A DNA stretch of 42,249 bases from Chloroflexota bacterium (GCA_036844545.1 DAIUFO010000001.1:25559-67807); one strand, 5' to 3'. Positions 83 to 34,072 are shown, numbered from the stretch's first letter. The notes: generated by a model not told the origin, from the letters alone. Made by a program: numbers and translations.

Positions 83-98
83 TTAGGAGAGCAAGACC

Positions 99-1139
<1,041 letters not shown>

Positions 1140-1160
1140 CCGATCTAGTACCCTTTGCGG

Positions 1161-1274
1161 GTGATTGCGGTGGGCGAGCTCCTCGGCCGGCTGCTCGCGC
1201 CGGTCGAGGATCGTTACTACCTGATGGCCACCATCATGTTGGGCTTTGCCGCTGCCCTGGTCATCATCCGTTAA
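1161..1274 (+). CDS. possible 37-aa single-pass membrane peptide (GTG start)
   Basis: Hand translation gives VIAVGELLGRLLAPVEDRYYLMATIMLGFAAALVIIR, ending at TAA 1272-1274, directly ahead of the membrane genes. No clear SD, and too short to verify. Confidence 0.25.
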   Translation: MIAVGELLGRLLAPVEDRYYLMATIMLGFAAALVIIR

Positions 1275-1280
1275 GCCATC

Positions 1281-1994: not shown

Positions 1995-1998
1995 GGGC

Positions 1999-3393
1999 GT
2001 GCCTCTCGGTCCGATCGGGCTGTGGCTCGTCCTCAGCCTGGCGCTTGTCGCCTGTTCGGCGGTCCCCAGCAGTCTGCAGCGCGGGCGCTGGGCGCTGCTG
2101 GCGGCGGTGGTGCTGGTGCTGGCGGCCTCGGTGGCGCTCGCCGGGCTTGCTCAGCCCGAGCCCCTGCCCCGTTTTCATGGCGGGCTGACATTTGACGAGG
2201 TAGCCCACCTATTACTGCCGCCGCTGTGGATCGGCGCGGCCATTGCCATTGCCACGGCCCTGTTCCTGCCCAGCGGCCGCTACGAGCCAGCCATTGGGGC
2301 ACTCACCACCGCTGCCGCCACCGCTGGTGTCCTGTCGGCCAATGCCCTCCTAACTATCGCCTTGCTGCAGGCCGGCGCCCTCATCGTGCTGGCCGGATTG
2401 CTGGTCCACGATGAAGGGCTGTCGGGCCACCCCTTGCTGAACGTCGCCACCAGCCTCAAGTTCCTGACGCTGACGGTCCTGTCAGGCGCCTGCCTGGTGA
2501 TGGCGCTGCTGCTGTCCACGTTCTACGCCCTCAATCAGGACCGCGTGGAACTCACGCGCATCATAGCGGCGGTATTCGTCGTCGGCTTCGGGCTGGCCGC
2601 CGGAGCTATGCCGTTCTACTTCCACGTCCCGGACATCTTCGACGCCGCGCCAACTTTGGCCACTGTGTCGCTGGTCGGGCCGATGCAGTGCCTGGCCTTC
2701 GTGTATCTCATACGCACCATCGGCAACGGCCCTTCGCTGTTGACCGATCAGCACGTATCGAATGTATTGGTCGCCGGGGCGCTGGCCGGGGCGCTGCTGG
2801 CCTCAGTGCTGGCCTTTGGTCAGCGCAGGCTCAACCGCATCCTGGCCTTCAACGCCATGCGCGAGGTAAGCTGGGTGGCTTTCGGCCTCGCTTCTGTGAG
2901 CCGCGGCGGCTGGACCGGGGCACTCGTCCTGCTGACCGTCCGATGTGTCAGTCAGCCGGTCCTGCTCGTGGCCTCGCGGGCAGCGCAGCAGCGAGCGGGT
3001 GAAATCGAGTTGGACAAGCTCGGGGAGCTCGCCAAGGTGCTGCCGTTGGCCGCCTTCGCCTGGTCAGCCGCCGCGTTCGCCAGCCTGGGATTACCTCCGG
3101 CGGGCAGCTTCTGGGGCCTCGCGGCATTGCTTCGGGCCGCTATGGCCGCTGGCGGGTTGGCCACGGCAACCCTGCTCGCGTCAGGCATGTTCGGACTGTG
3201 GCGTCTGGGCCAGGTGACGTACGCGGTGTTCTGGCGCCGGGCACGAGGTTTTGTGGACCCGGCAGCAGAGCCGGCCGCGCCGAAGTGGATCCTTGCCACT
3301 GCCGGCGTCGGCCTGATCGCCGTCGGATGTGTCCCGCGGCTGGTTCAGGCGCCCATCGATCAAGTGCTGGCCAGCCTTCCCTTCCTCCGCTAA
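1999..3393 (+). CDS. NuoN/MrpD-like antiporter-type membrane subunit (proton-conducting membrane transporter family), divergent
   Basis: GFGLAAGAMPFYFHVPDIFDAAPTLATVSLVG matches the family core (..K..PFH.W.PD.YeGAPT.vsa.l). The track ORF starts at 1861, but that overlaps the previous gene. GTG 1999 lies 5 nt after the previous gene's stop. Confidence 0.7.
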   Translation: MPLGPIGLWLVLSLALVACSAVPSSLQRGRWALLAAVVLVLAASVALAGLAQPEPLPRFHGGLTFDEVAHLLLPPLWIGAAIAIATALFLPSGRYEPAIGALTTAAATAGVLSANALLTIALLQAGALIVLAGLLVHDEGLSGHPLLNVATSLKFLTLTVLSGACLVMALLLSTFYALNQDRVELTRIIAAVFVVGFGLAAGAMPFYFHVPDIFDAAPTLATVSLVGPMQCLAFVYLIRTIGNGPSLLTDQHVSNVLVAGALAGALLASVLAFGQRRLNRILAFNAMREVSWVAFGLASVSRGGWTGALVLLTVRCVSQPVLLVASRAAQQRAGEIELDKLGELAKVLPLAAFAWSAAAFASLGLPPAGSFWGLAALLRAAMAAGGLATATLLASGMFGLWRLGQVTYAVFWRRARGFVDPAAEPAAPKWILATAGVGLIAVGCVPRLVQAPIDQVLASLPFLR

Positions 3394-3400
3394 ACTGGCA

Positions 3401-3420
3401 CGTACTTGCGCAAACGTACG
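3401..3420. terminator. hairpin after the antiporter-like gene (CGTACTT-GCGC-AA(AC)GTACG), no T-tract
   Basis: Imperfect inverted repeat starting 8 nt after the TAA stop (3391-3393). Function as a terminator or operator is unproven. Confidence 0.25.
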
Positions 3421-3474
3421 ATCCAACGAGGGCACACCGAGCACACGCGGCTGCCGCTGGGCCGGGCGTAGAAT

Positions 3475-4923
3475 ATGGAACTCGAGCAGTCTCTTCTTCC
3501 TCAGCTCAGCGTCAACATCAGCGCCAAGCTGATCACCTCGCTGAAAATCCTTCAGCTTTCGGCCGAGGAGCTGTCACAGACGATCCGCCAAGAAATGACG
3601 GACAATCCGGCGCTCGAGATTGATGAAGCCGCCCTTTGTCCCATCTGCGGTGCGCCATTAGAGGATGGCCGTTGCGCGGACTGCTACCCCGGCCAGGCTG
3701 AGAACGACACGCCAACCGCCGATGCCGACTATGATGCCGCCGCCTACGTCGAAACGCGGGAGCGGCAGCGCAACAACATGGACGGCGAAGAGGAATACGA
3801 CCCCATCTCCTTCGTCGCCTCCGACGTCAGCCTGTCGGACTACCTCACGTCGGCGCTGTACAACGTCCTGCCGCGCGAAGACTTCCCCATCGCCGACTAC
3901 CTTGTTGGCAGCCTGGACGAGTTCGGTTATCTGACAGTCAGCGATGACGAAGTCGCCGCGGCCTGCGGCGTCGACATCGGGCAAGTAAGAGAGGTCGTAG
4001 CGGCGCTGCAGCGCCAGGACCCGGTGGGAGTCGGGGCCAGATCGGCCCAAGAGTGTCTCCTGATCCAGCTGCGGCAGCTCGAAGAGGACGGCAAAGGTGA
4101 TCAGACGGTTAAGCGCATCCTGACCGGCTGTTTCGAGGAGCTGGGCGAGCACAAGTTCGACCAGATCGGTTCACGGCTGCACCTCAAGCTCGACCAGGTG
4201 ATCGCCGCCTGGGACTTCATCAAGAACAACCTGACGCCTTTCCCGGCCTGGAGCTTCTGGCGCGATGGCCAGCGAGTGACCGTGAGCCGCGCCGGTTACA
4301 TCCGGCCGGACGTGGCCATTCGGCCAACGGAGAGCGACTACGTCGTAGACGTGCTGGAGGCCGAACGCTACCAGCTGCGGATCAACGAGTTCTACCCCCA
4401 GCTCATCCGGGACGGAACCGATCTCTCGTCGGACGACCGCGACTTCGTAAGGAAATGCGCCAGCCGAGCAAAGTTCTTCATCGACTGCATCCAGCAGCGC
4501 TGGAGCACGCTGCGACAAATCACCGAATGCCTGGTCGATTGTCAGCGCGAGTTCCTGGACCAGGGGGTTCGCCACCTCAAGCCACTCACACGATCGGAGG
4601 TCGCCTTTCGGGTTGACCTGCACGAGTCCACAGTCAGCCGCGCCACCGCCAATAAATTCATCCTGCTGCCGAACCGCCGGGTCATCAGCTTCGACGACCT
4701 GTTTGACGGCTCGCTCGCTATCAAGGACGCGATCCGGGAGATAATTGAGCATGAGGATCACCTCCATCCGCTGAGTGACCAGGAGATCGCGCAGCGCCTG
4801 CAGGAAAATGGTGTCTTCTTGGCCCGGCGGACCGTGGCAAAATATCGCGATGCCATGCACGTCCTACCATCCAACCTACGCACCCGCATGGCCCTCCATC
4901 ATTACGCCGGAGCCACGGGTTGA
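3475..4923 (+). CDS. rpoN: RNA polymerase sigma-54 factor
   Basis: 482 aa. Region I (LKILQLSAEELSQTIRQEMTDNPALE), an HTH region and the C-terminal RpoN box ARRTVAKYR. Confidence 0.93.
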   Translation: MELEQSLLPQLSVNISAKLITSLKILQLSAEELSQTIRQEMTDNPALEIDEAALCPICGAPLEDGRCADCYPGQAENDTPTADADYDAAAYVETRERQRNNMDGEEEYDPISFVASDVSLSDYLTSALYNVLPREDFPIADYLVGSLDEFGYLTVSDDEVAAACGVDIGQVREVVAALQRQDPVGVGARSAQECLLIQLRQLEEDGKGDQTVKRILTGCFEELGEHKFDQIGSRLHLKLDQVIAAWDFIKNNLTPFPAWSFWRDGQRVTVSRAGYIRPDVAIRPTESDYVVDVLEAERYQLRINEFYPQLIRDGTDLSSDDRDFVRKCASRAKFFIDCIQQRWSTLRQITECLVDCQREFLDQGVRHLKPLTRSEVAFRVDLHESTVSRATANKFILLPNRRVISFDDLFDGSLAIKDAIREIIEHEDHLHPLSDQEIAQRLQENGVFLARRTVAKYRDAMHVLPSNLRTRMALHHYAGATG

Positions 4924-4931
4924 CGTGATGC

Positions 4932-5495
4932 ATGCCTGAGGGCCGGCTGTTCATCTTGTCGGGCCCCTCAGGCGTGGGCAAAGACGCGGTCATCAAGTCG
5001 CTGAAAGCTCGCGGCTTTCCGATGCACTACGCGGTCACAGCCACCACCAGACCCATCCGCGACGAGGAAGTGGCCGGTGTCGACTACATTTTCCTGTCGC
5101 ATCCCGAGTTCGACCGCCTCCTGGCGGAGGACGGCTTCCTGGAGCACGCCGACGTCTACGGCGAGCGCTACGGCACCCCCAAGGAGCAGGTGCTGCCACA
5201 TCTGACGCACGGCGATGACGTGCTCCTCAAGGTAGATGTCCAGGGTGCCGATACGGTCAAGGCCAAGATGCCGCGAACTATCCGCATTTTCCTGGCGCCC
5301 CCCTCATACCAGGTCCTGGAACGGCGGTTGAGAGAGCGGGAGCGCCTGCGCGTCTCGGAGGAGAAGCTCTTAGACCGCCTGCACAAGGTCGAATCGGAGA
5401 TGGCTCACGCGGGTGAGTACGACTGCGTGGTCTATAACCGCGACGCGGAACTCGAGGCGGCGGTCGACGACATCGAGAGGATCCTCCGGAGCTAA
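4932..5495 (+). CDS. gmk: guanylate kinase
   Basis: 187 aa. P-loop LSGPSGVGKD and the TTR motif (YAVTATTRPIRDEEVAGVDYIF). Confidence 0.93.
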   Translation: MPEGRLFILSGPSGVGKDAVIKSLKARGFPMHYAVTATTRPIRDEEVAGVDYIFLSHPEFDRLLAEDGFLEHADVYGERYGTPKEQVLPHLTHGDDVLLKVDVQGADTVKAKMPRTIRIFLAPPSYQVLERRLRERERLRVSEEKLLDRLHKVESEMAHAGEYDCVVYNRDAELEAAVDDIERILRS

Positions 5496-6172
5496 CGCGC
5501 GCCCACCGGCAGCGCTTGGTGCTGGCCGGCTTGGAACTTCTCCCAGTCCTCGAGGAAGCTGTCGATGCCCTTGTCCGTCAGCGGATGTTTGGCCGCGGCC
5601 TGGAGCACCTTGATGGGCACAGTGGCGATGTCCGCGCCGGCCTTAGCCGCGTCGATGAGATGCAGCGGGTGGCGGATGCTGGCTGCCAGCACCAACGTCG
5701 GCAGGTTGTGCTTGCGGTAAATCTCGACAGTGTCGCGGACGACCTGCATGCCATCCTCGGACACGTCGTCCAGCCGGCCCACGAAGGGGCTGATGATGTA
5801 CGCGCCAGCCAGCGCCGCGAACAGCGCCTGGTTGGCCGAGAAGCAGAGCGTCACGTTGCAGCGGATGCCTTCCTGCTTGAAGCGGCTGACCGCCTCCCAG
5901 CCGGCCGGGGTCGACGGCACTTTGATGACCACATTCGGATGCCACTTGGCGAAGCGCCGGCCCTCGTCCAGCATGCCGTTGGCGTCGAGACTAATCGTCT
6001 CCGCCGAGATCGGCCCGTCGACGATGCCGGCGATGTGCTTGATCACGTCCTCGTGGCTCATGCCCGAGGTCTTGCTCATCAATGTGGGGTTGGTGGTGAC
6101 GCCCGAGAGGATGCCCCAGCGCGCAACCTCGCGAATCTCGTCGATGTCGGCCGTATCCAGGAAAATGCGCAT
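5492..6172 (-). CDS. transaldolase / fructose-6-phosphate aldolase family (short TalC/Fsa type)
   Basis: 226 aa. MRIFLDTADIDEIREVARWGILSGVTTNPTL, the catalytic-lysine region VVIKVPST and CNVTLCFS. Confidence 0.9.
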   Translation of the reverse strand: MRIFLDTADIDEIREVARWGILSGVTTNPTLMSKTSGMSHEDVIKHIAGIVDGPISAETISLDANGMLDEGRRFAKWHPNVVIKVPSTPAGWEAVSRFKQEGIRCNVTLCFSANQALFAALAGAYIISPFVGRLDDVSEDGMQVVRDTVEIYRKHNLPTLVLAASIRHPLHLIDAAKAGADIATVPIKVLQAAAKHPLTDKGIDSFLEDWEKFQAGQHQALPVGAR

Positions 6173-6181
6173 ATCGAAAGA

Positions 6182-6817
6182 ATGGCACGCTCACTGATTC
6201 GATGGGTCCACCAGCGCTTGGTCGAGGCCTACGGCAGACCGGCCTGGGAAGTTCGCGGGGGACCGCTCGACGAGCTCATCGCCACGGTCCTGTCGCAACA
6301 CACGTCAGACATCAACTGCGACCGGGCCTTCGCCAGCCTGAAAGCAGCATTCGACACCTGGGAGGCGGTACGGGATGCCCCCCAAGCTGAAGTCTTCGAA
6401 GCAATCAAATGCGGCGGCCTGGCTGCCGTAAAGGCGCCACGCATCCAGGCCATCTTGCGCGCTCTGACGGACGGCACGGATCGGGTGGTGCTGCCGGAGC
6501 CGGTCGAGCGCGAGTTCCTGCTGACGCTGCCTGGCGTAGGCAAGAAGACGGCCTCCTGCGTGCTGCTGTTCGGCGCCCACCTGCCGGCGATCCCGGTGGA
6601 CACCCACGTCCATCGCGTGGCGCTGCGGACCGGCATGGTGGCGGCCAAGACGTCGCCTGACCAGACCTGCGACATCCTCGAATCCTCACTTTCAGAGGAC
6701 GACTACTACGCCTTCCACATGAACCTGATTCGGCACGGACGTGAGGTCTGCAAGGCGCAGCGCCCTCGATGCGACGCATGTGTGCTGCGAACGCGCTGCC
6801 TATATGCTCATCAGTAG
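6182..6817 (+). CDS. nth: endonuclease III family DNA glycosylase
   Basis: HhH LPGVGKKTASCVLLFG and a 4Fe-4S cluster loop C-x6-C-x2-C-x5-C (CKAQRPRCDACVLRTRC). The upstream part of track ORF 5516..6817 is antisense to the transaldolase gene, so the start is placed at ATG 6182. Confidence 0.88.
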   Translation: MARSLIRWVHQRLVEAYGRPAWEVRGGPLDELIATVLSQHTSDINCDRAFASLKAAFDTWEAVRDAPQAEVFEAIKCGGLAAVKAPRIQAILRALTDGTDRVVLPEPVEREFLLTLPGVGKKTASCVLLFGAHLPAIPVDTHVHRVALRTGMVAAKTSPDQTCDILESSLSEDDYYAFHMNLIRHGREVCKAQRPRCDACVLRTRCLYAHQ

Positions 6818-8053
6818 ATGATCAGCTCGATACCGCGCCACCAGGCCGTCGAAGGGATCGTGCCGGCGCCTGAGCAGCTGATCGGCGCTGGCATCGACCG
6901 CCGGCTTATCGGCGTGTTGACCGCCGGGCACCTGTTCGACGACATCAACCAGGGCGCCATCGCCGCCATGGTTCCCTTCTTTCTGACCGAGCGCCATCTG
7001 TCGTACGCAGCAGTTTCGGCATTAGTTCTCGCCGGCACCATCGCCTCCTCGGTGGTCCAACCGCTGTTCGGTCATCTGGCCGATCGGCGGGCAGCAGCCT
7101 GGCTGGCAGGGGCCGGCGTGTTCGTAGCCGGACTAGGTATCGCCCTGGCTGGCATCGCCCCCACGTATCTGTTGTCGCTGCTGGCGGTCGGCCTGAGCGG
7201 CATCGGCGTGGCGGCCTTCCATCCGGAAGCCACGCGCCTGGCAAACTACGCCTCCGGTAACCGCCGCGCCACCGGTATCAGCTTCTTCTCGGTGGGCGGG
7301 AACATCGGCTTCGCTATCGGCCCGCTGCTGGCCACGCCGCTGCTGCTGGCCTTCGGGCTGCGCGGTACGGTCCTGCTCATCATTCCCTCCAGCCTGGCTG
7401 CCGTGACGCTGCTGTGGCACGCGCCGCGCTTCGCCAGTCTGCGGCGGACCGTGACCGCGCGGCGCGCCGCGGGGCGCGAAACGGCAGTCGACCAGTGGCG
7501 CCCATTCGCCAGGCTGACGGCCACAGTCGTGTGCCGATCAATCGTCTTTTTCGGCCTCAATACCTTTATACCCATCTACTGGATCGCCGTGCTGCACCAA
7601 TCCAAAGCTCAAGCAGGCCTGGCCCTGACGCTGTTCGGCGTAGCCGGCGCAACGGGGACGCTTGCCGGCGGCCGCCTGGCGGATCGATTTGGCCGCGGCA
7701 ACGTCGTGCGCGTCAGCCTGGGCTTGCTGTGCCCGGCGATGCTGCTGCTGCTGCTGGCGGGCTCGGGGCCGCTGGCCCTCATCCTGCTGGTTCCCGTAGC
7801 GCTGACCCTGTACGCATCCAACAGTGTGATGGTGGTCATGGGGCAGGAATACCTGCCCAACCACCTGGGCACCGCCTCCGGTGTGACCCTGGGATTGGCC
7901 ATGACCATCGGCGGCTTGATGGTGCCGCTGCTTGGCCTCGCTGCCGACAGCTACGGCGTCCACACCGCGCTCACCGGGTTGGCCCTGTTGCCGCTCCTGG
8001 CCGCCGGCTTGGCGTTGACGCTGCCGGTAACGCGGCACAGACTCTCCACATAG
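6818..8053 (+). CDS. MFS transporter
   Basis: 411 aa, about 12 hydrophobic segments and an MFS loop motif (GHLADRR.., [10 protein letters not shown]). Confidence 0.85.
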
Positions 8054-8087
8054 ACTTGACACACCAGCAAGACTTGACACACCAGCA
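8052..8087 (+). repeat. perfect tandem duplication of an 18-bp unit AGACTTGACACACCAGCA (x2)
   Basis: Read directly: 8052-8069 equals 8070-8087. Each unit carries a TTGACA hexamer (8056-8061, 8074-8079). Confidence 0.9.
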
Positions 8088-8102
8088 CTCAACTTTCATA
8101 CT
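8074..8102 (+). promoter_or_regulatory. candidate clpB promoter: TTGACA (8074-8079), 17-nt spacer, CATACT (8097-8102)
   Basis: The hexamers have canonical spacing. The -10 ends 6 nt before the clpB ATG (8109) and there is no SD, which suggests a leaderless or near-leaderless mRNA. Confidence 0.4.
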
Positions 8103-8108
8103 AGTTCA

Positions 8109-10736
<2,628 letters not shown>

Positions 10737-10766
<30 letters not shown>

Positions 10767-10853
10767 GGTGAGGGAGCCCAGCTCAGCCGTGAGCGCGCGC
10801 TGAGGGAGCGGGTGAGCGCCCTCACCTAGCCTCTCCCACCGCGGTAGGAGAGG
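10737..10853. repeat. composite palindromic element, two inverted copies: 10737-10775 (26-nt perfect palindrome plus CTAGGGTGAGGGA) and 10818-10853 (GCCCTCACCTAG plus 24-nt palindrome)
   Basis: Read directly. It sits between the convergent clpB and GT2 genes and contains both stop codons (TAG 10764-10766; TGA on the minus strand at 10822-10824). An inner hairpin CTCAGC..GCTGAG lies in the spacer. Confidence 0.85.
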
Positions 10854-11559
10854 AACAAGTGGGGGCTTGCGGATGGACGCGCAGGTCCTTCCATAGGAGC
10901 AGCAGCTCTTTGAAGGCTCGCAGGATCACCTTCAGCTTGGCGCCCGACGGCGAGCCTTTGGTGCGCGGCAGATGGGTCACGCCCACCTCCCGGAACACGA
11001 AGCCTGCGCGCCGCGCCCGGACCAACAGCTCGGCGCTGAAGGTCGCCCCGCGTGACTGGACCGGCAGCGACTCGATGACCTCCCGGCGCATCAACTTGAA
11101 GGCGCAATCCACGTCGCGCGCCGCGTAGCCAAACAGCAGGTTCACCAGCGAGGTCCAGCCCCAGCCGTTCAGCTTGCGCATCAGCGGGTCCTGCCGCACC
11201 TTGCGGTAGCCGGCGACGAAGTCGGCCGGCATCTCGGCCAGCAGCAGCCGCAGCTCGTCCAGCTTGAACTGCCCGTCGGAGTCGGTGAACATGCGTCGCT
11301 CGCCGGTGGAGGACGTAAGCCCGGTCCACACCGCCGCGCCGTAGCCCTGGTTGACCAGGTGGCGCACCAGGCGCACCCGCTCGTGCGTTTCGGCGAACTC
11401 GTGTACCAGGTCAGCCGTGTTGTCCTTGCTGCCGTCGTCCACCACGACGATCTCATAGTCGGGCTCGATACTCTCGAGCACGGCCACTGCCTCGTTGAGG
11501 ACGTCGACGATGTTCTCGGCCTCATTGTGGGCTGGCATAGCGAGCGAGAGCGCTGGCAT
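10822..11559 (-). CDS. family 2 glycosyltransferase (polyprenyl-phosphate sugar synthase-like)
   Basis: LSLAMPAHNEAENI.., VVVDDGSKDNT and FTDSDGQF (DxD). The 89-aa Arg/Pro-rich extension in the track ORF was rejected, and the start is placed at ATG 11559. The C-terminal SSPTAVGEAR comes from a repeat. Confidence 0.85.
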   Translation of the reverse strand: MPALSLAMPAHNEAENIVDVLNEAVAVLESIEPDYEIVVVDDGSKDNTADLVHEFAETHERVRLVRHLVNQGYGAAVWTGLTSSTGERRMFTDSDGQFKLDELRLLLAEMPADFVAGYRKVRQDPLMRKLNGWGWTSLVNLLFGYAARDVDCAFKLMRREVIESLPVQSRGATFSAELLVRARRAGFVFREVGVTHLPRTKGSPSGAKLKVILRAFKELLLLWKDLRVHPQAPTCSSPTAVGEAR

Positions 11560-11669: not shown

Positions 11670-12668
11670 GTGGACCTGGCTCACATGGGCGAGTTCGGCG
11701 CGATTGAGCTGTTCCGGCAGGTTTTGGCGGCTCATACGGCCGAAGGCTCGCCGCGGCCGGAGATCGGCATCGGCGACGACGCCGCGGTGTGGCGCCCGAC
11801 CAAAGGCCGCTCGGCCATCGAAACAACTGACCTCCTCATCGAAGAAGTGCACTTCTCCTTGCGCTGGTGCAGCTGGTACGAGGTGGGCTGGAAGGCGATG
11901 GCCGTCAACGTCAGCGACGTGGCCGCCATGGGCGGCCAGCCCAGAGCGGCATTCGTTTCCGCCGGGCTGTCACCGGAAATGGGCACGGACCAGGTGCTCG
12001 AGCTCTATGGCGGCCTGGCTGACTGCGCGGCCGAGTACGGCCTCGCCATCCTGGGCGGCGACACCGTCGCCTCGCCTCGAGCGGCAGTGGTCAACGTCGC
12101 CCTCTACGGGGAGACCTTAGACGAGACCGGAGAGGTGCTGCGCCGCGATCGCGCCCGGCCCGGCGACGCGGTCGGCGTCAGCGGCCCGCTCGGCGCCTCG
12201 GGCGCCTATTTGCGGCGCCAGGAGGCGGCCTTTCGCGCCGCCCACCTCCACCCCCAGCCGCGGGTGACTCTTGGCCAACAGCTGCTGCGAGCCGGCGTCC
12301 ACTGCGCCATGGACGTCAGCGACGGCCTGCTCGCCGACCTGGCCAAGCTGTGCGCCGCCAGCTCCGCGGGCGCTCGCCTTGCCGCCGAGCGCATCCCCAT
12401 TGCTCCAGCCGTCCGGCAATTGCTGCCGGACGATGCCTTGGAGCTGGCCCTCACAGGCGGCGAGGACTACGAATTGCTGGTCTGCGGCCCAAAGGACGTG
12501 CTGGAGCAGCTGGGTTTAACGGTGATCGGCGAGATCGTCGAAGGCAGCGGCGTGCACGTGCTGGACAGCACCGGCGCCAAGCTCGACTACGCCAGCCGCG
12601 GCTACGATGCCTTTGCTCCCTCTCCCGCCGCGGCGGACGAGGGCTGGGGTGAGGGAACCAATGCGTAG
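11670..12668 (+). CDS. thiL: thiamine-monophosphate kinase
   Basis: GEFGAIELF.., IGIGDDAAV and the AIR-synthase-like fold motif (AMAVNVSDVAAMGG, DVSDGLLADL). GTG start. The C-terminal PSPAAADEGWGEGTNA comes from a repeat. Confidence 0.9.
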   Translation: MDLAHMGEFGAIELFRQVLAAHTAEGSPRPEIGIGDDAAVWRPTKGRSAIETTDLLIEEVHFSLRWCSWYEVGWKAMAVNVSDVAAMGGQPRAAFVSAGLSPEMGTDQVLELYGGLADCAAEYGLAILGGDTVASPRAAVVNVALYGETLDETGEVLRRDRARPGDAVGVSGPLGASGAYLRRQEAAFRAAHLHPQPRVTLGQQLLRAGVHCAMDVSDGLLADLAKLCAASSAGARLAAERIPIAPAVRQLLPDDALELALTGGEDYELLVCGPKDVLEQLGLTVIGEIVEGSGVHVLDSTGAKLDYASRGYDAFAPSPAAADEGWGEGTNA

Positions 12669-16031: not shown

Positions 16032-16058
16032 ATAGAGCGAATAGTCCCGCTCTATCTA
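16029..16058. terminator. 11-bp-stem hairpin TAGATAGAGCG-(8 nt)-CGCTCTATCTA between convergent genes
   Basis: Perfect inverted repeat. The two arms contain the stop codons of both convergent genes (TAG 16029-16031 and, on the minus strand, TAG 16056-16058). No U-tract. Confidence 0.5.
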
Positions 16059-17597
16059 GATCTTCGGCGTTAGGACGTACAGCTCTACGTTGGCAAAGCT
16101 CTGGCCTTCCGGCACGGGCTGCCAGGGCACGTCCCTGCGCTTGGCGTAGAACTCGTCCTGAGCGTGGATGAAAAGCCAGTAGGCGTCGTCGTGGACGTAG
16201 CGGCCCAGCTGCTGCAGCACCTTCACCCGCTCCTGGGGGTCGACGGTCCGGCGGCTGTCGTCGATCAGGCTGTTGAGCTTCCCATCGGGCGCATGCCCTT
16301 TGCGCTGGTACAGCGACCAAGCCAGCATCGCGTCCGGGTCGGCCGTGGCGCCCCAGGCGACTGACGTCATGCCCTCGAACGTGCCCGCCAGCCAGTCCGA
16401 TTGCAGCTTGGCGCGCTCGGTCGGCTGCAGCCGCACCTTGATGCCCACGTCGTTCAGCTCGCTGGCTACGGCCTCGGCGATCTCGCGGTCCTTGAGGAAG
16501 GTGCCGCTGGTGATGGTCCAGGTCGTCTCGAAGCCGCCGCTGTAGCCAGCGTCGGCCAGCAGCTGCTTGGCCTTGGCCGGATCGTAGGCGTAGGGCTTCA
16601 GGTTGGGGTCATACCCCGGCCAGGTCGAGCCGAATGCGCCGTGCAGCAGCTCGCCGTGGCCCTCGAGCACGTCTTTGAGGATGGCGTCACGGTTGACGGC
16701 GTAGTTGACCGCCTGCCGCACCTTCACGTCCGAGAATGGCTTCTTGGTGGTGTTGAAGGCGTAGATGATGGTCCGGGCGCCCTTCAACGAGGCCACTTCG
16801 GTATTGCCCGTCGATAGCTCCGGCAGCTGCGGCAATGGCGGCGCCTCGACGATCTGCGCCCCTCCGCTCTTGAGCTCGGCCACGCGCGTAGCCGGATCGC
16901 CGATCTGGCGAATGGTCAGCCGCTGGGGCTGCACCGTGCCGCGCCAGTAGGTCGGGTTCGCGTCCAGCACAATGCGCTGTCCCCGCGTGAACTCCGTCAG
17001 CTTGTACGGGCCGGTGCCGATCGGTTTGGCCGCGAACGCCTCCAGTCCGGCCTTGTCTCGCGCACTCTTCGGCAGGATGTAGAGCTGCGCCAGGTTGGCC
17101 GCCAGCCCTGGGCGAGGCCCGTCGGTGGTAATGCGCAGGGTCAGAGGGTCCACCGCCTGCACGTTGGTGATGCCCTGTGTGTAGATGTTGTGGGCCGACT
17201 TGGCATCCAGGTCCAGCTTGAGCGAGTACTCGGCGTCGGCTGAGGTGAAGTCGTCGCCGTTCTGGAACTTGACACCGCTGCGCAGCTTGAAGTCCCATAC
17301 GTTGCCGTTGGTCGTCCAAGACTCGGCCAGGCGCGGCGTGAGCTTGAACGGCTGGCCCTCGTAGGTAACGAGCGCCTCGAAGATGTGCCGCTGGACCTCG
17401 TTCGTGCCATTGGTCGTGTCGCTCGTGCCGGGGTCGAGGCTGGTGGCCTCCTCGGTCAGGGCCACTGTCCATTGGCTGCCGGCCGGCTTCGAGGCGGGGC
17501 TGGCCGAACCACCGCTGGCTGCTGGCTGGGCGCCGCCACACGCCGCCAGCAGGACGGCGGTCAGGGCAAGCGTTGGCAGTCGACGAAATGACGGCAT
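16056..17597 (-). CDS. ABC transporter substrate-binding lipoprotein, family 5 (peptide/nickel/opine type)
   Basis: Lipobox LLAAC, then family-5 SBP-like sequence throughout. The start is placed at ATG 17597 (SD GGAG 9 nt upstream) rather than the track's TTG 17612. Confidence 0.9.
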   Translation of the reverse strand: MPSFRRLPTLALTAVLLAACGGAQPAASGGSASPASKPAGSQWTVALTEEATSLDPGTSDTTNGTNEVQRHIFEALVTYEGQPFKLTPRLAESWTTNGNVWDFKLRSGVKFQNGDDFTSADAEYSLKLDLDAKSAHNIYTQGITNVQAVDPLTLRITTDGPRPGLAANLAQLYILPKSARDKAGLEAFAAKPIGTGPYKLTEFTRGQRIVLDANPTYWRGTVQPQRLTIRQIGDPATRVAELKSGGAQIVEAPPLPQLPELSTGNTEVASLKGARTIIYAFNTTKKPFSDVKVRQAVNYAVNRDAILKDVLEGHGELLHGAFGSTWPGYDPNLKPYAYDPAKAKQLLADAGYSGGFETTWTITSGTFLKDREIAEAVASELNDVGIKVRLQPTERAKLQSDWLAGTFEGMTSVAWGATADPDAMLAWSLYQRKGHAPDGKLNSLIDDSRRTVDPQERVKVLQQLGRYVHDDAYWLFIHAQDEFYAKRRDVPWQPVPEGQSFANVELYVLTPKI

Positions 17598-17608
17598 AGT
17601 TCTTCTCC

Positions 17609-18913
17609 TCAATCCAGAATCGTTGGGCCGGTCACGGGGGTGGCCAGCGCGTTCAGCGCCTTGGCCACCAGAGCCTTGCGGAAGGCGCGCTCGTCATCCC
17701 GGCGCAGACTTGGGTCGCCGGTGACGTTGACGATGGCCTTGCCGCGGATGATGCGATTGGCGCCGACGGCCAGCGCCACGTTGTCCAGCGCGGTGATGTA
17801 GGCGACTGGTATCCCGCTGGACTCCAGCTCCTTGGCGAGCGCGGCGCCGCCGCGACTGCACGACCCTCAGGCCCCGGTCAGGATCACGCCTTCGACGCCC
17901 GCGCCGTGCAGCTCGCGCGACATCTCCCGCGCGAAGCGGCGCATGGTGGGAATCGCTGAGGTATTGCCGACGGTCGTGTACAGCTCGTCGTGAAGCTGGC
18001 GAAAAGCTCCCTGCTGCTCCAGCTCCCGCAAGCTGTCCAGGGGAGCCATGCGGTCGGGGTCCTCGTTCACGTTGGTCGTGTCGAAGCCACCGTGCACGGA
18101 CTGCCAGTCCGCCGGCTGAAAGCGCTCCAACCCGGCAATGGAATAGCGCAGCCACTTGCTGGCGTAAGCCGATTCCAACCGGTCGGGATTACCGCGGGGC
18201 ACGACGCCGCCGGTGGTAATCATCGCGATCTTGGCCTGGGCCACATCCGGAATGGGCGGCGCCGGCTCGATCAGGCTGTACGTTGGCACCGTCCATTCGG
18301 TGGCGTACGGCTGTCCCGCCACCTTCCGCAGCAGCATGTCCACCGCCCGCTCCGCAGCCGTCCGCTCCGAAACCTGGTGGACGCGCCGGCCGGTGGGGAT
18401 GTATCCCTCCTCTGCCGGTGGGCCAAGCTCCTCGCCCGCGTGCAGCCTCAACGCCAGAGACGCCATCCGCTCCAGCGCGTCGCGCATGCCCAGCGCCGTG
18501 TCCCGCGTGCTGGCCAGGTACACCTTGGTCCGGTACATGTCGGCGCCAGGGTTCCCCGGGTGCATGCCCGATACAGCCGTGATGCCCAACGTCTCCTGGG
18601 CGTGGGCGCACACGGCGCCGCAGGCTAAGCCGTAACGGCCAGCTGCGAATGCCGGCCCCGCAATCAAGATGTCGGGAGCCTCGCTGGCGACCAACGGCAT
18701 GACCTCGTCCATGGCGCCGGAGGATTCGTTGGCGTAGTTGTCGCCGCAGTAAACGGTCGAGACCACTTGGGCGCGGTCGCCGAGTGCCTGCTGTAGCGCC
18801 AAGCCCGGGCCGGCTGGGCCGGACTTCCGGCCGGGCGGCAGCCCCGCCCGCGTCTCGCCGCCGATGCCCGCGAAGAACTGGTTGAGGTAATGGACCACTC
18901 GAAGGGCGCTCAT
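17609..18913 (-). CDS. grdB: GrdB-like selenoprotein (glycine/sarcosine/betaine reductase protein B selenoprotein-subunit family), 434 aa with Sec at residue 349 encoded by UGA 17867-17869
   Basis: The N-terminus is LRVVHYLNQFFAGIGGE. The ORF stops at TGA, but the same frame continues for 85 codons: U-GSCSRGGAALAKELESSGIPVAYITALDNVALAVGANRIIRG.., ending at TGA 17609-17611. The length and the Sec context match GrdB. Confidence 0.85.
17867..17869 (-). other. in-frame UGA, predicted selenocysteine codon
   Basis: The plus strand reads tca at 17867-17869. Family-conserved sequence lies on both sides of it in one frame. Confidence 0.8.
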
Positions 18914-18929
18914 CCCAAATCTCCTTCCG

Positions 18930-20207
18930 TCAATGGAAACGCGTGGTCTGCCGGCTGAAGCCCTGATTGCTGGAGGATGTATGAATGTACCGCATCTGCA
19001 GCGTCAGCTCTCCGTGCGGATCGACATCGGTGGTGATGAGCCGGCCACCGATGACCTCGTCCACGGGCGGCAAGGTCACCTGCCGGTCACGGGTGCCGAC
19101 GCAAACGATGGCGTCGGCTTCGGGCACGGCGTGGATGAAGCCGGGGTCGTCGTTACCCAGCCCCACGTCGAGGTACACCATGGTCGTCTTGATTCCGGCC
19201 TTTTCGCATTCCTGCACGGCAATCATGGTATCGATGGCCATGTTGCTGCCGTTGATGCCCAGCACGATCGCGGCCTCGGCGCCGAGCAGCTTGGCCAGCT
19301 TGGCGGCGCCCGTGCCGATGCGCTCCTTCTCCACACGCGTGGGCGACTCGTCGCCGAAAAGGATGGAGCCCAGGAAGTTCAGATCGCGTCCATGGCGGCG
19401 ACAGAGCTCCTGGAGCACCGCGTGGTTCTGGTCCCAATAGGTGCAGCGGTAGGCTTGCCGCCAACCGACCAGCGCGCCGTCGAACAGCTCGTTGGGGTGG
19501 ATCACCGTCCCAAATGGCAGTGGCGCGCGAAGCCCATACAGGAACGGGTGTTGGGTGTGGTGCAGGCACACCGTCCGCGGCAAGTCCGGATGGCATTTCG
19601 CCAGCTCGAACGTCTCCACCTCGTCCGGCTCCAGGCTGATTGAGACGCGCCCCAAATGCGCAGCCACTTTGAGGCTCGCGGCGGTGATGGCCCGGTTGTA
19701 GTCGATGGCCGCCGCGCCGCCGCCCAGCACGTCTTTGACGTTCTCCGAGCCGGCGGGGAAAAAGGCCGGGTTCGGCTCGAACTCCAGCACCACGTTGTGT
19801 GTACGGCCAAACGGACTGAAGTCGGCGCCTGGGCCGGACATATCCAGCACTTGCTCGCGGAAATGGGTCTGCTCGCCTGGCACCGGAGAGCTGACCTCGA
19901 CCACGGCCACGCCAGCCAGCCGGTGTGTCCTGCCGCTGCCCACCAGTGTCACATCTGAGACGAAGCCGGGGAACACTCCACCCGGGCCAGCTACCTTCCA
20001 GCGCGGCTCCACGACGTCCAGGCCGTTGACGATGCGCACCGAGTCGCCGGGCTGCGCCAGGTGTACTTGCACAGCGGCAAAATGGGAATCCTCCAGCACC
20101 AGCTGGCGGATCTCGTCGCGGTCGACCGTCAGCGTGTGCCCGTCGAGCGCTGTTCGCGAGCCAAAGGCAACCTCCCGGACCTGGAAAGAGCCGATATCGA
20201 GCCGCAT
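18930..20207 (-). CDS. grdE: GrdE-like proprotein (glycine/sarcosine/betaine reductase protein B alpha/beta precursor family, pyruvoyl-type)
   Basis: 425 aa. MRLDIGSFQVREVAFGSRT.., IHPNELFDGALVG, TYWDQNH.., LNFLGSI and GINGSNMAIDTM resemble GrdE/PrdA-family proproteins. It lies immediately upstream of the grdB-like gene. Confidence 0.8.
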   Translation of the reverse strand: MRLDIGSFQVREVAFGSRTALDGHTLTVDRDEIRQLVLEDSHFAAVQVHLAQPGDSVRIVNGLDVVEPRWKVAGPGGVFPGFVSDVTLVGSGRTHRLAGVAVVEVSSPVPGEQTHFREQVLDMSGPGADFSPFGRTHNVVLEFEPNPAFFPAGSENVKDVLGGGAAAIDYNRAITAASLKVAAHLGRVSISLEPDEVETFELAKCHPDLPRTVCLHHTQHPFLYGLRAPLPFGTVIHPNELFDGALVGWRQAYRCTYWDQNHAVLQELCRRHGRDLNFLGSILFGDESPTRVEKERIGTGAAKLAKLLGAEAAIVLGINGSNMAIDTMIAVQECEKAGIKTTMVYLDVGLGNDDPGFIHAVPEADAIVCVGTRDRQVTLPPVDEVIGGRLITTDVDPHGELTLQMRYIHTSSSNQGFSRQTTRFH

Positions 20208-20210
20208 CGC

Positions 20211-21131
20211 TTACACCTGCAACCTGGGGTCGAGCGCATCTCGCAGCCCGTCGCCGAACAAATTCGTGGCTAACACGGTGATGACCAGCGCAATGCCCGG
20301 GAACAGGCCCAGCCACCAGGCCGTGGACAGGTACTCGCGACCTTGGCTGAGCATGGCGCCCCAGCTGGGCGTGGGTGGCTGCACACCCAACCCGAGGAAG
20401 CTGAGCGAGGACTCGGCGATGATCAGCTCGGCGAACTGGAAGCTGCTGATGACGAAGATCGGCGCCATTACGTTCGGCGCCAGGTGGTGGACGATGATGC
20501 GAGCGTTCCGCGCGCCCAGCGAGCGCGCCGCCTCGACGAACTCGCGCGCTTTGAGGCTGAGCACCGCGCCGCGCACCGTCCTGGCGTAGACCACCCAGCT
20601 GCGCAGCGCCAGCACGATCACCAGGTTCAGCAGGCTCGGCTTGAGCAGCGCCATGACGGCGATGGCCAGCAGCAAGTACGGAAACGACAGCTGGATGTCC
20701 ACGATACGCATCAGCGCTGCGTCCAAGCCGCCGCCATAGTAGCCGGAGATCAGTCCCACCGCCACGCCCACTACCAGCGCGACCAGGACACTGACGCCGG
20801 CAATGGCCAGCGAGGTCCTAGCCGCCCAAATGACTCGCGTGAGCGTGTCGCGCCCCAGCGAGTCGGTACCGATGGGGTGGACTGTGCTCCCACCCACGAT
20901 CCAGGCTGGCGGCTTCAAGCCGTCGCCAAGATGCTGCGCATCAGGCCCGGCCGGCGCAAGGATGGGGGCGGCTAAGGCGACCAGCACCACCAGCGCCAGC
21001 AAGGCGAACCCCACGGCTCCGCTGCTGGTCCGCGCCAGCCGCCGCAGCGTCTCAAAGCGCCGCGGCTCCGCTTCCTTAGAGTCCCCTCGCCCGCTTCGGC
21101 GGGCGAGGGTTAGGGTGAGGGCACTCATCAT
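20211..21131 (-). CDS. ABC transporter permease (DppC/OppC type)
   Basis: 306 aa, with the binding-protein-dependent transport signature region (..SLSFLGLGVQPPTPSWG..). ATGA start/stop overlap with the upstream permease. N-terminal residues 3-17 come from a repeat. Confidence 0.9.
   Translation of the reverse strand: MMSALTLTLARRSGRGDSKEAEPRRFETLRRLARTSSGAVGFALLALVVLVALAAPILAPAGPDAQHLGDGLKPPAWIVGGSTVHPIGTDSLGRDTLTRVIWAARTSLAIAGVSVLVALVVGVAVGLISGYYGGGLDAALMRIVDIQLSFPYLLLAIAVMALLKPSLLNLVIVLALRSWVVYARTVRGAVLSLKAREFVEAARSLGARNARIIVHHLAPNVMAPIFVISSFQFAELIIAESSLSFLGLGVQPPTPSWGAMLSQGREYLSTAWWLGLFPGIALVITVLATNLFGDGLRDALDPRLQV
21084..21121. repeat. repeat copy: CCCTCGCCCGC-TTCG-GCGGGCGAGGG plus TTAGGGTGAGGG
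   Basis: Read directly. It lies inside the 5' end of the permease CDS and is translated on the minus strand as SALTLTLARRSGRGD. Confidence 0.85.
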
Positions 21132-22069
21132 GCCAGCTCCACCCGCTTGTCGAGGTAGCGGTACAGCACGTCAATCGTCAGATTGATGAGCACGAAGCCA
21201 ACCGCCACCACGACCAGCCCAGCCAGCACCACCGGGTAGTCACGTTTGAGGATCGAGTCCAGCATCAGCGTGCCCACACCCGGCCAGGCGAATACGGTCT
21301 CGGTCAGGATGGCCCCCCCCAGGAGTCCGCCGAGCTGCAAGCCGAGGACGGTGACGATGGGATTGAGCGCATTGCGGAAGGCGTGCCTTGCCACCACGGT
21401 GCGGCCTGCCAGGCCCTTGGCGCGAGCCGTCCGGACATAGTCTTGCGACAGCACGTCGAGCATGCCGGACCTCGTGAGCCGCGCCAGAAGCGCCAACAGG
21501 AACATGGCCAGCGAAACGCTCGGCAGGATCAACTGTGCGACGCTGCCTCGCCCCGATACGGGCAGCAGCCGGAAGTGCACCGCGAACACGAGGATCAGCA
21601 GCATGCCCAACCAAAACGTCGGCACTGACTGCCCCAGCAGCACGAAGCCCATGGCCAGGCGATCGAAGGCTGAGCCCCGCTTGACCGCCGACAGCATGCC
21701 GGCCGGGATCGCCACGGCCACCGCGATCGAGATCGCTGCCGCCGACAGCTCCAACGTCGCCGGCAGGCGTTCCAGCACGACCAGCATTGCTGGCTGGGCA
21801 TAGGCGAACGAGCGCCCAAAATCCCCCTGCACGAGGCGCGACAGGTAATGGCCGTATTGGAGGAGGATGGGCTGGTCCAGGCCATACGCCTGCTTGAAGG
21901 CCAGCCGCACCTGGTCGTCCGCCTGCGGTGGCAGCAGGATTTGGGTGACGTCTCCACTGAGCTGCAGCAGCACGAACGCCGCGATCGTCACACCCAAGAG
22001 TGACGGGATCGCCTGCACCAGCCGAGCCAGGGCAAACCGGACCACGCGCCTATTAGGCCATAGCGCCAA
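21128..22069 (-). CDS. ABC transporter permease (DppB/OppB type)
   Basis: 313 aa. The N-terminal RFALARLVQAIPSLLGVTIAAFVLL is typical of DppB. The start is uncertain (TTG 22069 or GTG 22045). Confidence 0.9.
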   Translation of the reverse strand: MALWPNRRVVRFALARLVQAIPSLLGVTIAAFVLLQLSGDVTQILLPPQADDQVRLAFKQAYGLDQPILLQYGHYLSRLVQGDFGRSFAYAQPAMLVVLERLPATLELSAAAISIAVAVAIPAGMLSAVKRGSAFDRLAMGFVLLGQSVPTFWLGMLLILVFAVHFRLLPVSGRGSVAQLILPSVSLAMFLLALLARLTRSGMLDVLSQDYVRTARAKGLAGRTVVARHAFRNALNPIVTVLGLQLGGLLGGAILTETVFAWPGVGTLMLDSILKRDYPVVLAGLVVVAVGFVLINLTIDVLYRYLDKRVELA

Positions 22070-32680: not shown

Positions 32681-33349
32681 ATGTCCAGCGTCCATGTCAT
32701 TCCGCTCGACTTATTGGGTCATCCGCATGGGGATGGACTGTATGAGGTCCACGAATGGCGGAACGCCGCCGCCATCCTGCAGGAGGTGTATCCCGAAGCA
32801 TGGCGAGACGTGCTCGAGGTACTCCGGGCGTTCCGGCTCTCACGGAACGACATCCTCACCCCTGGCGGTGGCAAATCGCCGATTGCTTCAAAGCTGGACA
32901 GCGCCTTCTATGCACGCGGTTGGCAAGAAAAGCGCTTCGAGACTCACATTACGGTGGACCAGACCAGCTACGACTCACCGACCCATCAAGTGGACTGCCT
33001 GAAGGCGAAGGTCGCGCTCGAAGTCGAATGGTCGAATAAGGACACCTTCTTCGACCGGGACCTCAACAACTTCCGGCTGCTCTTCGATTTGCGGGCGATT
33101 GACGTTGGCGTCATCGTCACCCGCAGCGATGATCTACAAGCCCTCTTCAATGAGGTCGGCAAGGGCAAAAGCTACGGACAATCCACGACGCACATGAGCA
33201 AGTTGCTACCTCGCCTCGAAGGCGGCGGCGGTGGCGGCTGTCCCGTCCTGGTCTTCGGTATCAACCGCAAGCTCTACGTCGATGACGGCCTCACGGCGGA
33301 GCCTGCGGTCACATCCGCGGGACCAAAGGATGAAAATCCCCAGCCGTAG
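32681..33349 (+). CDS. type II restriction endonuclease, BglII/BamHI-like fold
   Basis: 222 aa. VDCLKAKVALEVEWSNKDTFFDRDLNNFRLLF aligns with the BglII core IDFGKRDTLVEVQFSNYPFLLNN (D-x8-E-x-[QE]). It lies next to a DNA methyltransferase. Confidence 0.7.
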   Translation: MSSVHVIPLDLLGHPHGDGLYEVHEWRNAAAILQEVYPEAWRDVLEVLRAFRLSRNDILTPGGGKSPIASKLDSAFYARGWQEKRFETHITVDQTSYDSPTHQVDCLKAKVALEVEWSNKDTFFDRDLNNFRLLFDLRAIDVGVIVTRSDDLQALFNEVGKGKSYGQSTTHMSKLLPRLEGGGGGGCPVLVFGINRKLYVDDGLTAEPAVTSAGPKDENPQP

Positions 33350-33367
33350 TAGGATCCCGGCCAACTC

Positions 33368-34072
33368 ATGACCGAAGCACTGGCCTACGCCGACTCCCAA
33401 CCCAACCTCGAAGAATCCCTGCTGGACTTCGCCGCCGGGCGTCGATGGTCCACTCTCTACGCCGATCCCCCGTGGCAATTCGCCAACAAGACCGGGAAGG
33501 TGGGTCCCGAACACCGCCGGCTATTCCGGTACGAGACCATGACGAACGAAGGGATCATGGCCCTACCAGTGGCGGAAGTCGTCACGGCTCCATCCCACCT
33601 CTATTTGTGGGTGCCGACCGCGCTCATTCCCACAGGAATCGCAACGATGGAAAGTTGGGGCTTTCGCTATATCTCGGCCCTTTACTGGCACAAGCTTCGC
33701 AAAGACGGCTGCTCGGACGGTCGCGGAGTAGGCTTTTACTTCCGCAACGTCGTTGAACCCTGCCTGTTTGGAGTCCGCGGCAACATGCGTACGCTGGCCC
33801 CTGGTCGCAGCCAAGTGAATTATTTGGGAACGAGAAAGCGCGAGCACAGCCGCAAACCCGACGAGTTCTACTCCATCTTCATCGAGCGCTGCTCACCTGG
33901 ACCGTACTTGGAGCTGTTCGCTCGTGGCCCGGCACGAGCAGGCTGGGACGCCTGGGGCAACCAAGCAGGATTACCGCTGGCAAACGGCCACCCCATGTAT
34001 CGAGGTGAGCCCGCACAACCACGCCTGCTTGCCGAGAGGCGTGCCCCTATCCCGGCGACGGCGACCGAATGA
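33368..34072 (+). CDS. MT-A70 family DNA N6-adenine methyltransferase
   Basis: Catalytic motif YADPPWQF, then HLYLWVP and EHSRKPDEFY, all typical of MT-A70. Confidence 0.85.
   Translation: MTEALAYADSQPNLEESLLDFAAGRRWSTLYADPPWQFANKTGKVGPEHRRLFRYETMTNEGIMALPVAEVVTAPSHLYLWVPTALIPTGIATMESWGFRYISALYWHKLRKDGCSDGRGVGFYFRNVVEPCLFGVRGNMRTLAPGRSQVNYLGTRKREHSRKPDEFYSIFIERCSPGPYLELFARGPARAGWDAWGNQAGLPLANGHPMYRGEPAQPRLLAERRAPIPATATE

Follow-up and report, generated by a model that had tools for sequence, protein, structure and literature searches.

A predicted selenocysteine codon in an importer-linked GrdB-family gene of a Chloroflexota bacterium

Introduction

The classical glycine reductase GrdB proteins of Eubacterium acidaminophilum, Clostridium sticklandii, and C. 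difficile are about 435 amino acids (aa) long and carry a UGA-encoded selenocysteine (Sec, U) near residue 350. The motif published for this site is UxxCxxC (PMC13188914), and few or no homologues of GrdB with Cys have been reported (PMC1794560). Many protein B modules of different substrate specificity can be present in one bacterium, as is often the case; they feed a common reductase system and are often encoded beside a transporter for their own substrate (PMC10838667). Betaine reductase (GrdH/GrdI) and sarcosine reductase (GrdF/GrdG) are substrate-specific modules of the same family and are often transporter-adjacent, while FarB/FarE of the Synergistota is a divergent GrdB/GrdE pair with an adjoining dedicated transporter (PMC10838667; NF053623). 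FarB departs from the Cys motif that follows Sec, and neither GrdI nor FarE, both of them without the two cysteines, is a proprotein (PMC10838667). In C. difficile GrdE, the pyruvoyl peptide comprises residues 242-266 (PMC9908766).

Here, we examine a related gene in a 42,249-nt (42-kb) stretch of DNA from a Chloroflexota bacterium (hereafter, the window), a chromosomal segment of 65.7% GC that carries recA, rpoN, gmk, clpB, thiL, tsaE, rimI, tsaD, fabF, and rnc. We conclude, with a probability of about 0.93, that the UGA at positions 17867-17869 encodes Sec in a reductase subunit of the GrdB (selenoprotein B) family. The recoding, the family, the motif, and the full-length form of this gene are already known or annotated, and to that extent the finding is an ordinary, textbook case. 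The remaining novelty would lie at the level of the clade, in an importer-linked UxxCxxG branch with a putatively non-processed partner.

Results and Discussion

The reading frame continues past an in-frame UGA

Translation of the minus strand gives a 348-aa open reading frame (ORF) that runs from an ATG at 18913-18911 to a TGA at 17869-17867, begins with MSALRVVHYLNQFFAGIGGE, and ends in GVEGVILTGA. The ATG is preceded by GGAAGGAG, and the N-terminal segment LRVVHYLNQFFAGIGGE was found as the initial annotation had described it. Beyond the TGA, the frame stays open for 85 sense codons (beginning GSCSRGGAALAKELESSGIPVAYITALDNV) until a second TGA at 17611-17609, and 11 nt (GGAGAAGAACT, with a GGAG Shine-Dalgarno inside) separate this stop from the next ATG at 17597-17595. 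Translation therefore confirms what the initial annotation had read from the sequence, namely, 85 further codons in the same frame, a Sec at residue 349 of 434, and a long form that ends 11 nt before the next start codon with a Shine-Dalgarno in between; its coordinates for the ORF, the UGA, the final stop, and the hairpin were all correct on recheck (Table 1). In a scan of the whole window, the TGA at 17867-17869 was the only in-frame TGA with coding-type GC3 on either side. Because no second TGA in the window is flanked by coding signal in this way, TGA is not generally reassigned there and serves elsewhere as a stop.

Table 1. Features of the GrdB-like locus and of the neighboring candidate selenoprotein gene. 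Coordinates are those of the window unless a contig is named.
Feature	Coordinates	Strand	Details
Predicted full-length GrdB-family selenoprotein B gene	17609..18913	-	434 codons and final TGA stop, Sec as codon 349; translation, TIGR01918, Pfam GRDB, NCBI record L171
In-frame UGA, predicted Sec codon (residue 349)	17867..17869	-	Context ILTGA-U-GSCSRGG; TGA in 171/171 related loci and three assemblies
C-terminal extension	17612..17866	-	85 codons; dropped by ORF callers or called as a separate small ORF; covered by TIGR01918, GrdF, GrdB, and GrdH models
SECIS core hairpin	17840..17854	-	Stem CGCGGC/GCCGCG, loop GGC at 17846-17848; nt +16 to +30 from U of UGA; 6 bp, -9.5 kcal/mol
Extended minimum-free-energy hairpin	17835..17861	-	Pairs G9-C35, U10-G34, G11-C33, A13-U32, G14-C31; U15 bulged
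Spacer	17598..17608	-	GGAGAAGAACT, 11 nt; carries Shine-Dalgarno of binding-protein gene
DppB/OppB-type ABC permease	21128..22069	-	Profile match; 305 aa (about 21128-22045) with the start chosen by gene callers
DppC/OppC-type ABC permease	20211..21131	-	Profile match
GrdE/GrdG-like partner	18930..20207	-	425 aa, PF09338; 16 nt upstream of GrdB-like gene; identical to HEY8691701.1
Family-5 (peptide/nickel/opine type) substrate-binding lipoprotein	16056..17597	-	513 aa; lipobox LAAC; last gene of cassette
Candidate selenoprotein, ArsC/Spx family	L168:3374-3715		About 6 kb upstream of window; in-frame TGA at codon 11, MATQFLWKPS-U-TSC... (UxxC)

The read-through product matches selenoprotein B from end to end

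For profile searches, the UGA was replaced by Cys in the 434-aa product. The product matches TIGR01918, the model of the [quoted passage not shown] at 474.1 bits (cut-off 65.45), with residues 5-433 aligned to model positions 1-430 of 431. The GrdF, GrdB, and GrdH models also align nearly end to end with the product, while the Pfam GRDB model spans residues 4-347, i.e., only the part that precedes the UGA. Over about 84 residues, the 85-aa extension shares 42-71% identity with its counterpart in 158 other GrdB-family genes, a range that equals that of the N-terminal part. Because the TIGR01918 match extends across the full length, we regard the extension as a genuine GrdB C terminus. The proposal that read-through restores a full-length GrdB-type protein is thus upheld, as is the resemblance of its extension to GrdB C termini.

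The TGA recurs in three assemblies (ENA, NCBI, and JGI) that are independent and 99.83-99.92% identical to the window. In the NCBI record (GCA_036565165.1, DATCNQ010000131.1; L171, a Chloroflexota MAG), the gene is annotated as a single 434-aa product with one residue different from the window's protein; the full-length form is therefore already in GenBank. On the near-identical ENA and JGI contigs, the gene is called as 348 aa plus 56 aa, and the second part ranges from 56 to 76 aa among ENA and JGI assemblies, in agreement with the earlier statement that ORF callers truncate it. Prodigal-type callers thus split this gene into a 348-aa protein and a small orphan ORF, while the NCBI pipeline handles it correctly. 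Because of such splitting, metagenome protein catalogues contain many truncated GrdB entries. The 120 best database homologues listed are all about 348 aa long and give a query coverage of 80%, and they therefore end at the same point.

The UGA is conserved in all 171 related loci

To this comparison we added the DNA of 171 gene copies taken from genome and metagenome collections. These loci include Chloroflexota, Methylomirabilota, Binatia, Thermodesulfobacteriota, Synergistota, Actinomycetota, Firmicutes, and others. Each of the 171 loci has TGA at the aligned position, followed by 78-106 conserved in-frame codons; neither TGC, TGT, any other sense codon, nor a frameshift was found at this position in any of them. 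In the classical loci, which have grdA about 470 nt upstream, the TGA is followed by G-T-C-T-R-C. Since these loci show the published UxxCxxC there, the aligned column is the Sec column of the family. The alignment of the window's U with the family's Sec, as first proposed, is borne out, and the sense codon or frameshift in relatives that would have spoken against it is seen in none of the 171 loci.

The uniform TGA also accords with the published scarcity of Cys homologues of GrdB (PMC1794560).

A covarying hairpin follows the UGA

The initial annotation had placed a hairpin of the form CGCGG-CGGCG-CCGCG 12 nt after the UGA and considered it a possible SECIS element. The location was right, and the form is better described as a 6-bp CGCGGC/GCCGCG stem with a GGC triloop. 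Compared to the bacterial SECIS consensus of the bSECISearch model (PMC13188914, Fig. 2A), the hairpin has the small apical loop starting with GG (GGC, 3 nt), the 6-bp upper stem, the 18-nt spacing, and an energy below -7.5 kcal/mol (-9.5 kcal/mol); it differs from the consensus in having only a triloop, a very GC-rich stem, and no Rfam match. An Rfam scan of the window returned 0 matches, and no Rfam model detects the hairpin. The lower stem of the extended structure is weakly supported, as pair 15-31 covaries in the family (UA in 61, GC in 53, AU in 9, and CG in 2 sequences) but is unpaired in the window.

For the window sequence alone, folding energy does not set the hairpin apart from dinucleotide shuffles (z = -0.09) or from synonymous recodings (z = +0.71). 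Across the family, the synonymous-recoding null gives a mean z of -0.63 versus -0.13 for control windows (Mann-Whitney test, P = 1.6e-9), a modest shift. Because the energy is not significant in the window and the family-wide shift is only modest, we set the minimum free energy aside in favor of covariation and synonymous-site conservation. Hairpins of the consensus type also follow 4-26% of arbitrary codons in the neighboring GC-rich genes. A SECIS match in a single sequence is therefore weak, and the support comes from comparison with relatives.

In this comparison, 126 of the 158 distinct family sequences have a consensus-type hairpin at exactly the 18-nt spacing with a GGN loop, which is formed by the codon for the conserved Gly at +7. 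Covariation was assessed in 150 distinct sequences over a 7-bp helix (columns 15-21 with 25-31) against 500 shuffles. We found that 96.1% of the cells are paired, versus 81.1% in the shuffles, and that 150 cells are doubly changed, versus 51 expected; the covariation score is 0.380, versus 0.120 in the shuffles and 0.011-0.116 in slid registers. None of the 500 shuffles reached the observed pairing or the observed score. The covarying pairs join synonymous third positions with first positions of other codons. Pair 19-27, for example, is UA in 104 sequences (Cys UGC/Ala GCA), AU in 24 (Ser AGC/GCU), and GC in 22 (Gly GGC/GCC), with 0 mismatches, and pair 18-28 is UA in 109 (Arg CGU/Thr ACG) and CG in 39 (CGC/Ala GCG). 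The window has G-C at pair 19-27 and C-G at pair 18-28.

Codon usage points in the same direction in the close clade, which comprises 22 distinct genes of at least 62% identity. Of the 90 columns where the amino acid is invariant and could be encoded by at least four synonymous codons, only 4 keep to one codon throughout, and the stem codons +5, +6, and +8 after the UGA (CGC, GGC, and GCC) account for 3 of these frozen columns. Codon +7, in the loop, is either GGC or GGT. Together, the conserved position, the covariation, and the frozen synonymous sites of the stem indicate that the hairpin is a selected RNA element, ancestral to the GrdB family. The earlier suggestion of a SECIS element is thus strengthened by the fit to the published consensus and by positional conservation and covariation across the family.

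Alternative readings of the UGA

The UGA could be a true stop, in which case the product would be a 348-aa truncated protein, with its C terminus perhaps encoded by a separate small ORF (a split gene), or the gene would be a pseudogene. This is exactly the arrangement of 348 aa plus 56-76 aa that standard gene callers give, and Sec machinery was not seen in the window. However, the nine codons that separate the UGA from the first possible internal start keep their protein sequence (GSC[SN]RGGA), with codons +1 and +2 free to change synonymously, and they are therefore translated in this frame. The window has Leu where relatives have the Met that is used as a start, the hairpin covaries, and the TGA and the extension are kept in all 171 loci across phyla, unlike in a pseudogene. 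We therefore regard termination at this codon as very improbable, and we give a similarly small chance to the possibility that the UGA is read without selenium, either by near-cognate insertion of Trp, Cys, or Arg or by Cys on tRNA(Sec), to yield a protein that is full-length and not a selenoprotein. Such decoding does not account for a SECIS hairpin under purifying selection in the clade or for a family in which no member, among 171 loci, has replaced TGA by TGC or TGT. It is also opposed by the second UxxC candidate with a SECIS-like hairpin in the same population (described below) and by the use of TGA in the window, where it is not generally reassigned.

A sequencing or assembly error that turned TGC or TGG into TGA is the least probable of the alternatives. 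Nothing favors it except that the source is a metagenome-assembled genome, and it is already refuted by the ENA, NCBI, and JGI assemblies, which share the TGA with one another and with every relative. The reading of the UGA as a Sec codon is the one that we carry forward.

A second candidate selenoprotein suggests a Sec-decoding host

Profile searches of the 42-kb window detected no selA, selB, or selD, and the window holds no tRNA-Sec and no tRNA of any kind. Among the relatives fetched, tRNA-Sec was found in only three distant loci. An AIR-synthase-family gene at 11670-12668 was considered as selD and rejected, as it scores 261 bits against thiL (cut-off 184) and 70 bits against selD (cut-off 125).

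The first 9,018 nt of the window are shared, at 99.73% identity, with a contig that extends 9.9 kb upstream. In the upstream region lies a gene with an in-frame TGA whose read-through product aligns with positions 2-113 of the 117-position TIGR01617 model at 75.7 bits (cut-off 75.05) and also matches the Pfam ArsC model (Table 1). A GCGCG-GUC-CGCGC hairpin begins 20 nt after its UGA. ArsC-like selenoproteins are a known family (PMC1088965, PMC1794560). Because this second UxxC candidate comes from the same population, the Sec-decoding trait is likely to be present in the host population.

The gene belongs to a conserved importer-linked cassette

The GrdB-like gene is the fourth of five genes in a minus-strand cassette, in the order DppB, DppC, GrdE-like, GrdB-like, and binding protein. 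No genes for an ABC ATPase or thioredoxin were found in the 42-kb window, and grdC and grdD are absent from its annotated genes. A tblastn search of the window detected no grdA-like sequence; the GrdA query was validated by the 55 grdA genes that it recovered in other loci, nearly all of which show the expected CFV-TGA-T site. These 55 more distant loci have grdA nearby, while none was found within about 8 kb in close-clade loci with long flanks (e.g., L001, L002, L006, L008, L011, L012, and L086). In one relative of 72% identity, a glutaredoxin gene and a grdA gene, the latter split at its own Sec codon, directly follow the cassette, which suggests that the module is able to function together with protein A.

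In loci at least 62% identical to the window gene and with enough flanking sequence, the GrdB-like gene is always linked to GrdE-like and family-5 binding-protein genes, and two DppBC-type permeases are also present in most of them. The binding-protein gene comes first in a Methylomirabilota subgroup, and in two loci (L086 and L091) the gene order is rearranged and no permease was detected. A literature search for a cassette of GrdE-like, GrdB-like, and ABC-importer genes found nothing specific to it. In a search of PDB sequences, no solved GrdB or PrdB was found, and the binding protein retrieved only generic binders of peptides, glutathione, nickel, and opines, with matches at 1e-47 or weaker. 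Because its solved relatives are such generic binders, the substrate is not narrowed by this comparison.

Comparison with described selenoprotein B types

The window gene and classical GrdB have in common the 18-nt hairpin with a GGN loop, a PF09338 gene immediately upstream, and a homologous C-terminal segment. In contrast, they are only about 43-50% identical, and the motif is UxxCxxG in the window versus UxxCxxC in classical GrdB. The window gene is situated among ABC importer genes, without grdA in 42 kb, while in classical loci grdA is close by; its clade occurs in soil and groundwater Chloroflexota and not, as classical GrdB does, in Stickland fermenters. All loci at least 62% identical share U-G-S-C-[S/N]-R-G-G, i.e., UxxCxxG. 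The window and its clade do not have UxxCxxC; they retain its first Cys and carry Gly in place of the second. Other variants (UxxGxxC, UxxGxxS, and UxxDxxC) occur elsewhere in the family, and UxxCxxC is therefore not a strict family requirement.

The protein also scores below the equivalog cut-offs of GrdB (TIGR01917, 449.6 versus 602.2), GrdF (NF040794, 471 versus 800), and GrdH (NF040795, 399.8 versus 775), and it reaches 76.6 bits against the D-proline reductase PrdB (TIGR04483, cut-off 300). PrdB is homologous to it over the Sec-containing C-terminal half (residues 224-401), with UxxC common to both, but PrdB is only about 240 aa long and pairs with PrdA. Judged by these scores, the window gene is not one of the characterized selenoprotein B types.

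The GrdE-like partner matches Pfam PF09338 at 284 bits and falls below the cut-offs of GrdG (224 versus 780) and FarE (151.6 versus 675). In a MAFFT alignment, the classical processing site ...SGN-C-VSA-C... corresponds to GW-RQAY----R[C/A/S]T in the clade, and neither Cys nor Ser is conserved there. The alignment has a gap of 3-4 residues at the site, so the absence of the processing cysteines is suggestive and not final. The partner would then lack the pyruvoyl-forming cysteines and resemble GrdI, which likewise is not a cysteine-processed proprotein (PMC10838667). The transporter associated with the window's module is a family-5 ABC system and not OpuD. FarB/FarE offers a further parallel, in that the Cys motif after Sec is altered and the E-type subunit is without the two processing cysteines. 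Unlike FarB/FarE, however, the window has neither an antiporter nor a radical-SAM gene, retains the first Cys (UxxC), and belongs to other host phyla.

A proposed protein B module for an imported substrate

Drawing on these comparisons of sequence and gene order, we propose that the mRNA hairpin 18 nt downstream of the UGA (6-bp GC stem, GGC loop) would recruit SelB-GTP-Sec-tRNA(Sec) at this codon. Sec would be inserted as residue 349, and translation would continue for 85 more codons to the stop at 17609-17611, yielding a 434-aa protein centered on U349-x-x-C352. This protein would pair with the GrdE-like subunit encoded 16 nt upstream, and the pair would form a "protein B" module for the reductive cleavage of a carbon-heteroatom bond alpha to a carboxylate. 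The co-encoded ABC importer, consisting of two permeases and the family-5 binding lipoprotein, may bring in the substrate. The most economical reading of the cassette is a substrate-specific protein B module for an imported substrate.

We consider it about an even bet that the locus represents a distinct selenoprotein-B clade in soil and groundwater Chloroflexota, Methylomirabilota, Binatia, and related MAGs. Such a clade would be defined by UxxCxxG, by a partner that, like GrdI and FarE, is not a pyruvoyl proprotein, and by a co-inherited family-5 binding protein, mostly with two DppBC permeases and with no ATPase gene. It would reduce an imported compound other than glycine, sarcosine, betaine, or proline, probably without Schiff-base activation.

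On this reading, Chloroflexota of soil and groundwater possess a reductase module of the Stickland type that depends on selenium, and the conserved importer-linked cassette could be a target for enzyme discovery, as the fluoroacetate reductase FarB/FarE was.

Composition of the importer cassette and its GrdE-like partner

The cassette surrounding the GrdB-family selenoprotein gene encodes two permeases and a binding protein of an importer, and a gene for an ABC ATPase was found neither in this cassette, nor in the rest of the window, nor in the relatives inspected (including loci L001 and L002). The ATPases must have their genes at another location, or the importer must share those of a different system. 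Gene order also varies within the close clade, which comprises loci at least 62% identical to the GrdB-like gene of the window. In the variant loci L086 and L091, a divergent second family-5 binding protein gene is followed by grdB, a binding protein gene and grdE, and no permeases were detected.

In the GrdE-like partner, the two cysteines found at the classical self-cleavage (pyruvoyl) site both appear to be missing, a feature in which it resembles the non-processed proteins GrdI and FarE. In the alignment, GrdE-like proteins of the clade carry R[C/A/S]T at this site, preceded by a gap of 3 to 4 residues.

Variation around selenocysteine and the neighborhood of grd genes

Across all fetched loci, the seven residues that follow selenocysteine differ by subgroup (GTCTRCG, GTGTRCG, GTGTRSG, GTDTRCG, GTSTRCG, GTCNRCG and GSCSRGG), and cysteine is universal in the family at neither U+3 nor U+6. 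The P0009 contig (JGI 3300056388), from a 72%-identical relative, is the only close-clade locus with protein A seen nearby: glutaredoxin and grdA genes follow the cassette on the opposite strand, and grdA is split into 42 and 109 aa at its own selenocysteine codon. In three distant loci of the family, a tRNA-Sec gene lies within a few kilobases of the grd genes.

Coordinates of features in the window and in related loci
Feature	Locus	Position	Strand
Importer cassette	window	16056-22069	-
GrdE-like partner gene	window	18930-20207	-
Variant cassette	L086	8172-14459	
Glutaredoxin and grdA	P0009 contig	10192-10955	opposite to cassette
tRNA-Sec	L101	2899-2995	
tRNA-Sec	L104	18436-18530	
tRNA-Sec	L150	1736-1830	
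BglII-like endonuclease (222 aa) and adjoining MT-A70 family adenine methylase (234 aa)	window	32681-34072	+
Hen1-like frame	window	39890-40738	+
Long open frame	window	40600-42249	+
63-nt element, copy 1	window	10723-10784	
63-nt element, copy 2	L168	3712-3773	opposite to copy 1
ArsC/Spx-family gene (~6.2-6.5 kb upstream of the window start)	L168	3374-3715	+

Other features of the window

The BglII-like and MT-A70 genes, assigned through Pfam annotations already available for identical proteins, probably form a restriction-modification pair. Near the window end, a frame that gives a weak match (75 bits versus a cut-off of 340) to the N-terminal region of the bacterial Hen1 protein overlaps a long open frame that has no family match, lies in a different frame and extends past the window end; the overlap may reflect a frameshift or a mis-set start.

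A 63-nt element occurs in two inverted copies (92% identical), both at convergent gene ends, 3′ of clpB in the window and 3′ of the ArsC-like gene in L168. This element could represent either a terminator common to both sites or a small repeat.

A likely second selenoprotein

L168, a contig 99.73% identical to window positions 1-9018, carries an ArsC/Spx-family gene whose codon 11 is an in-frame TGA (MATQFLWKPS-U-TSC); read as selenocysteine, this codon gives a UxxC motif. Gene callers retain only the 70-aa tail, and the read-through product matches the TIGR01617 profile over positions 2-113 of 117. A GCGCG-GUC-CGCGC hairpin is located 20 nt 3′ of the UGA. The ArsC/Spx-family product is likely a second selenoprotein of the organism represented by the window.
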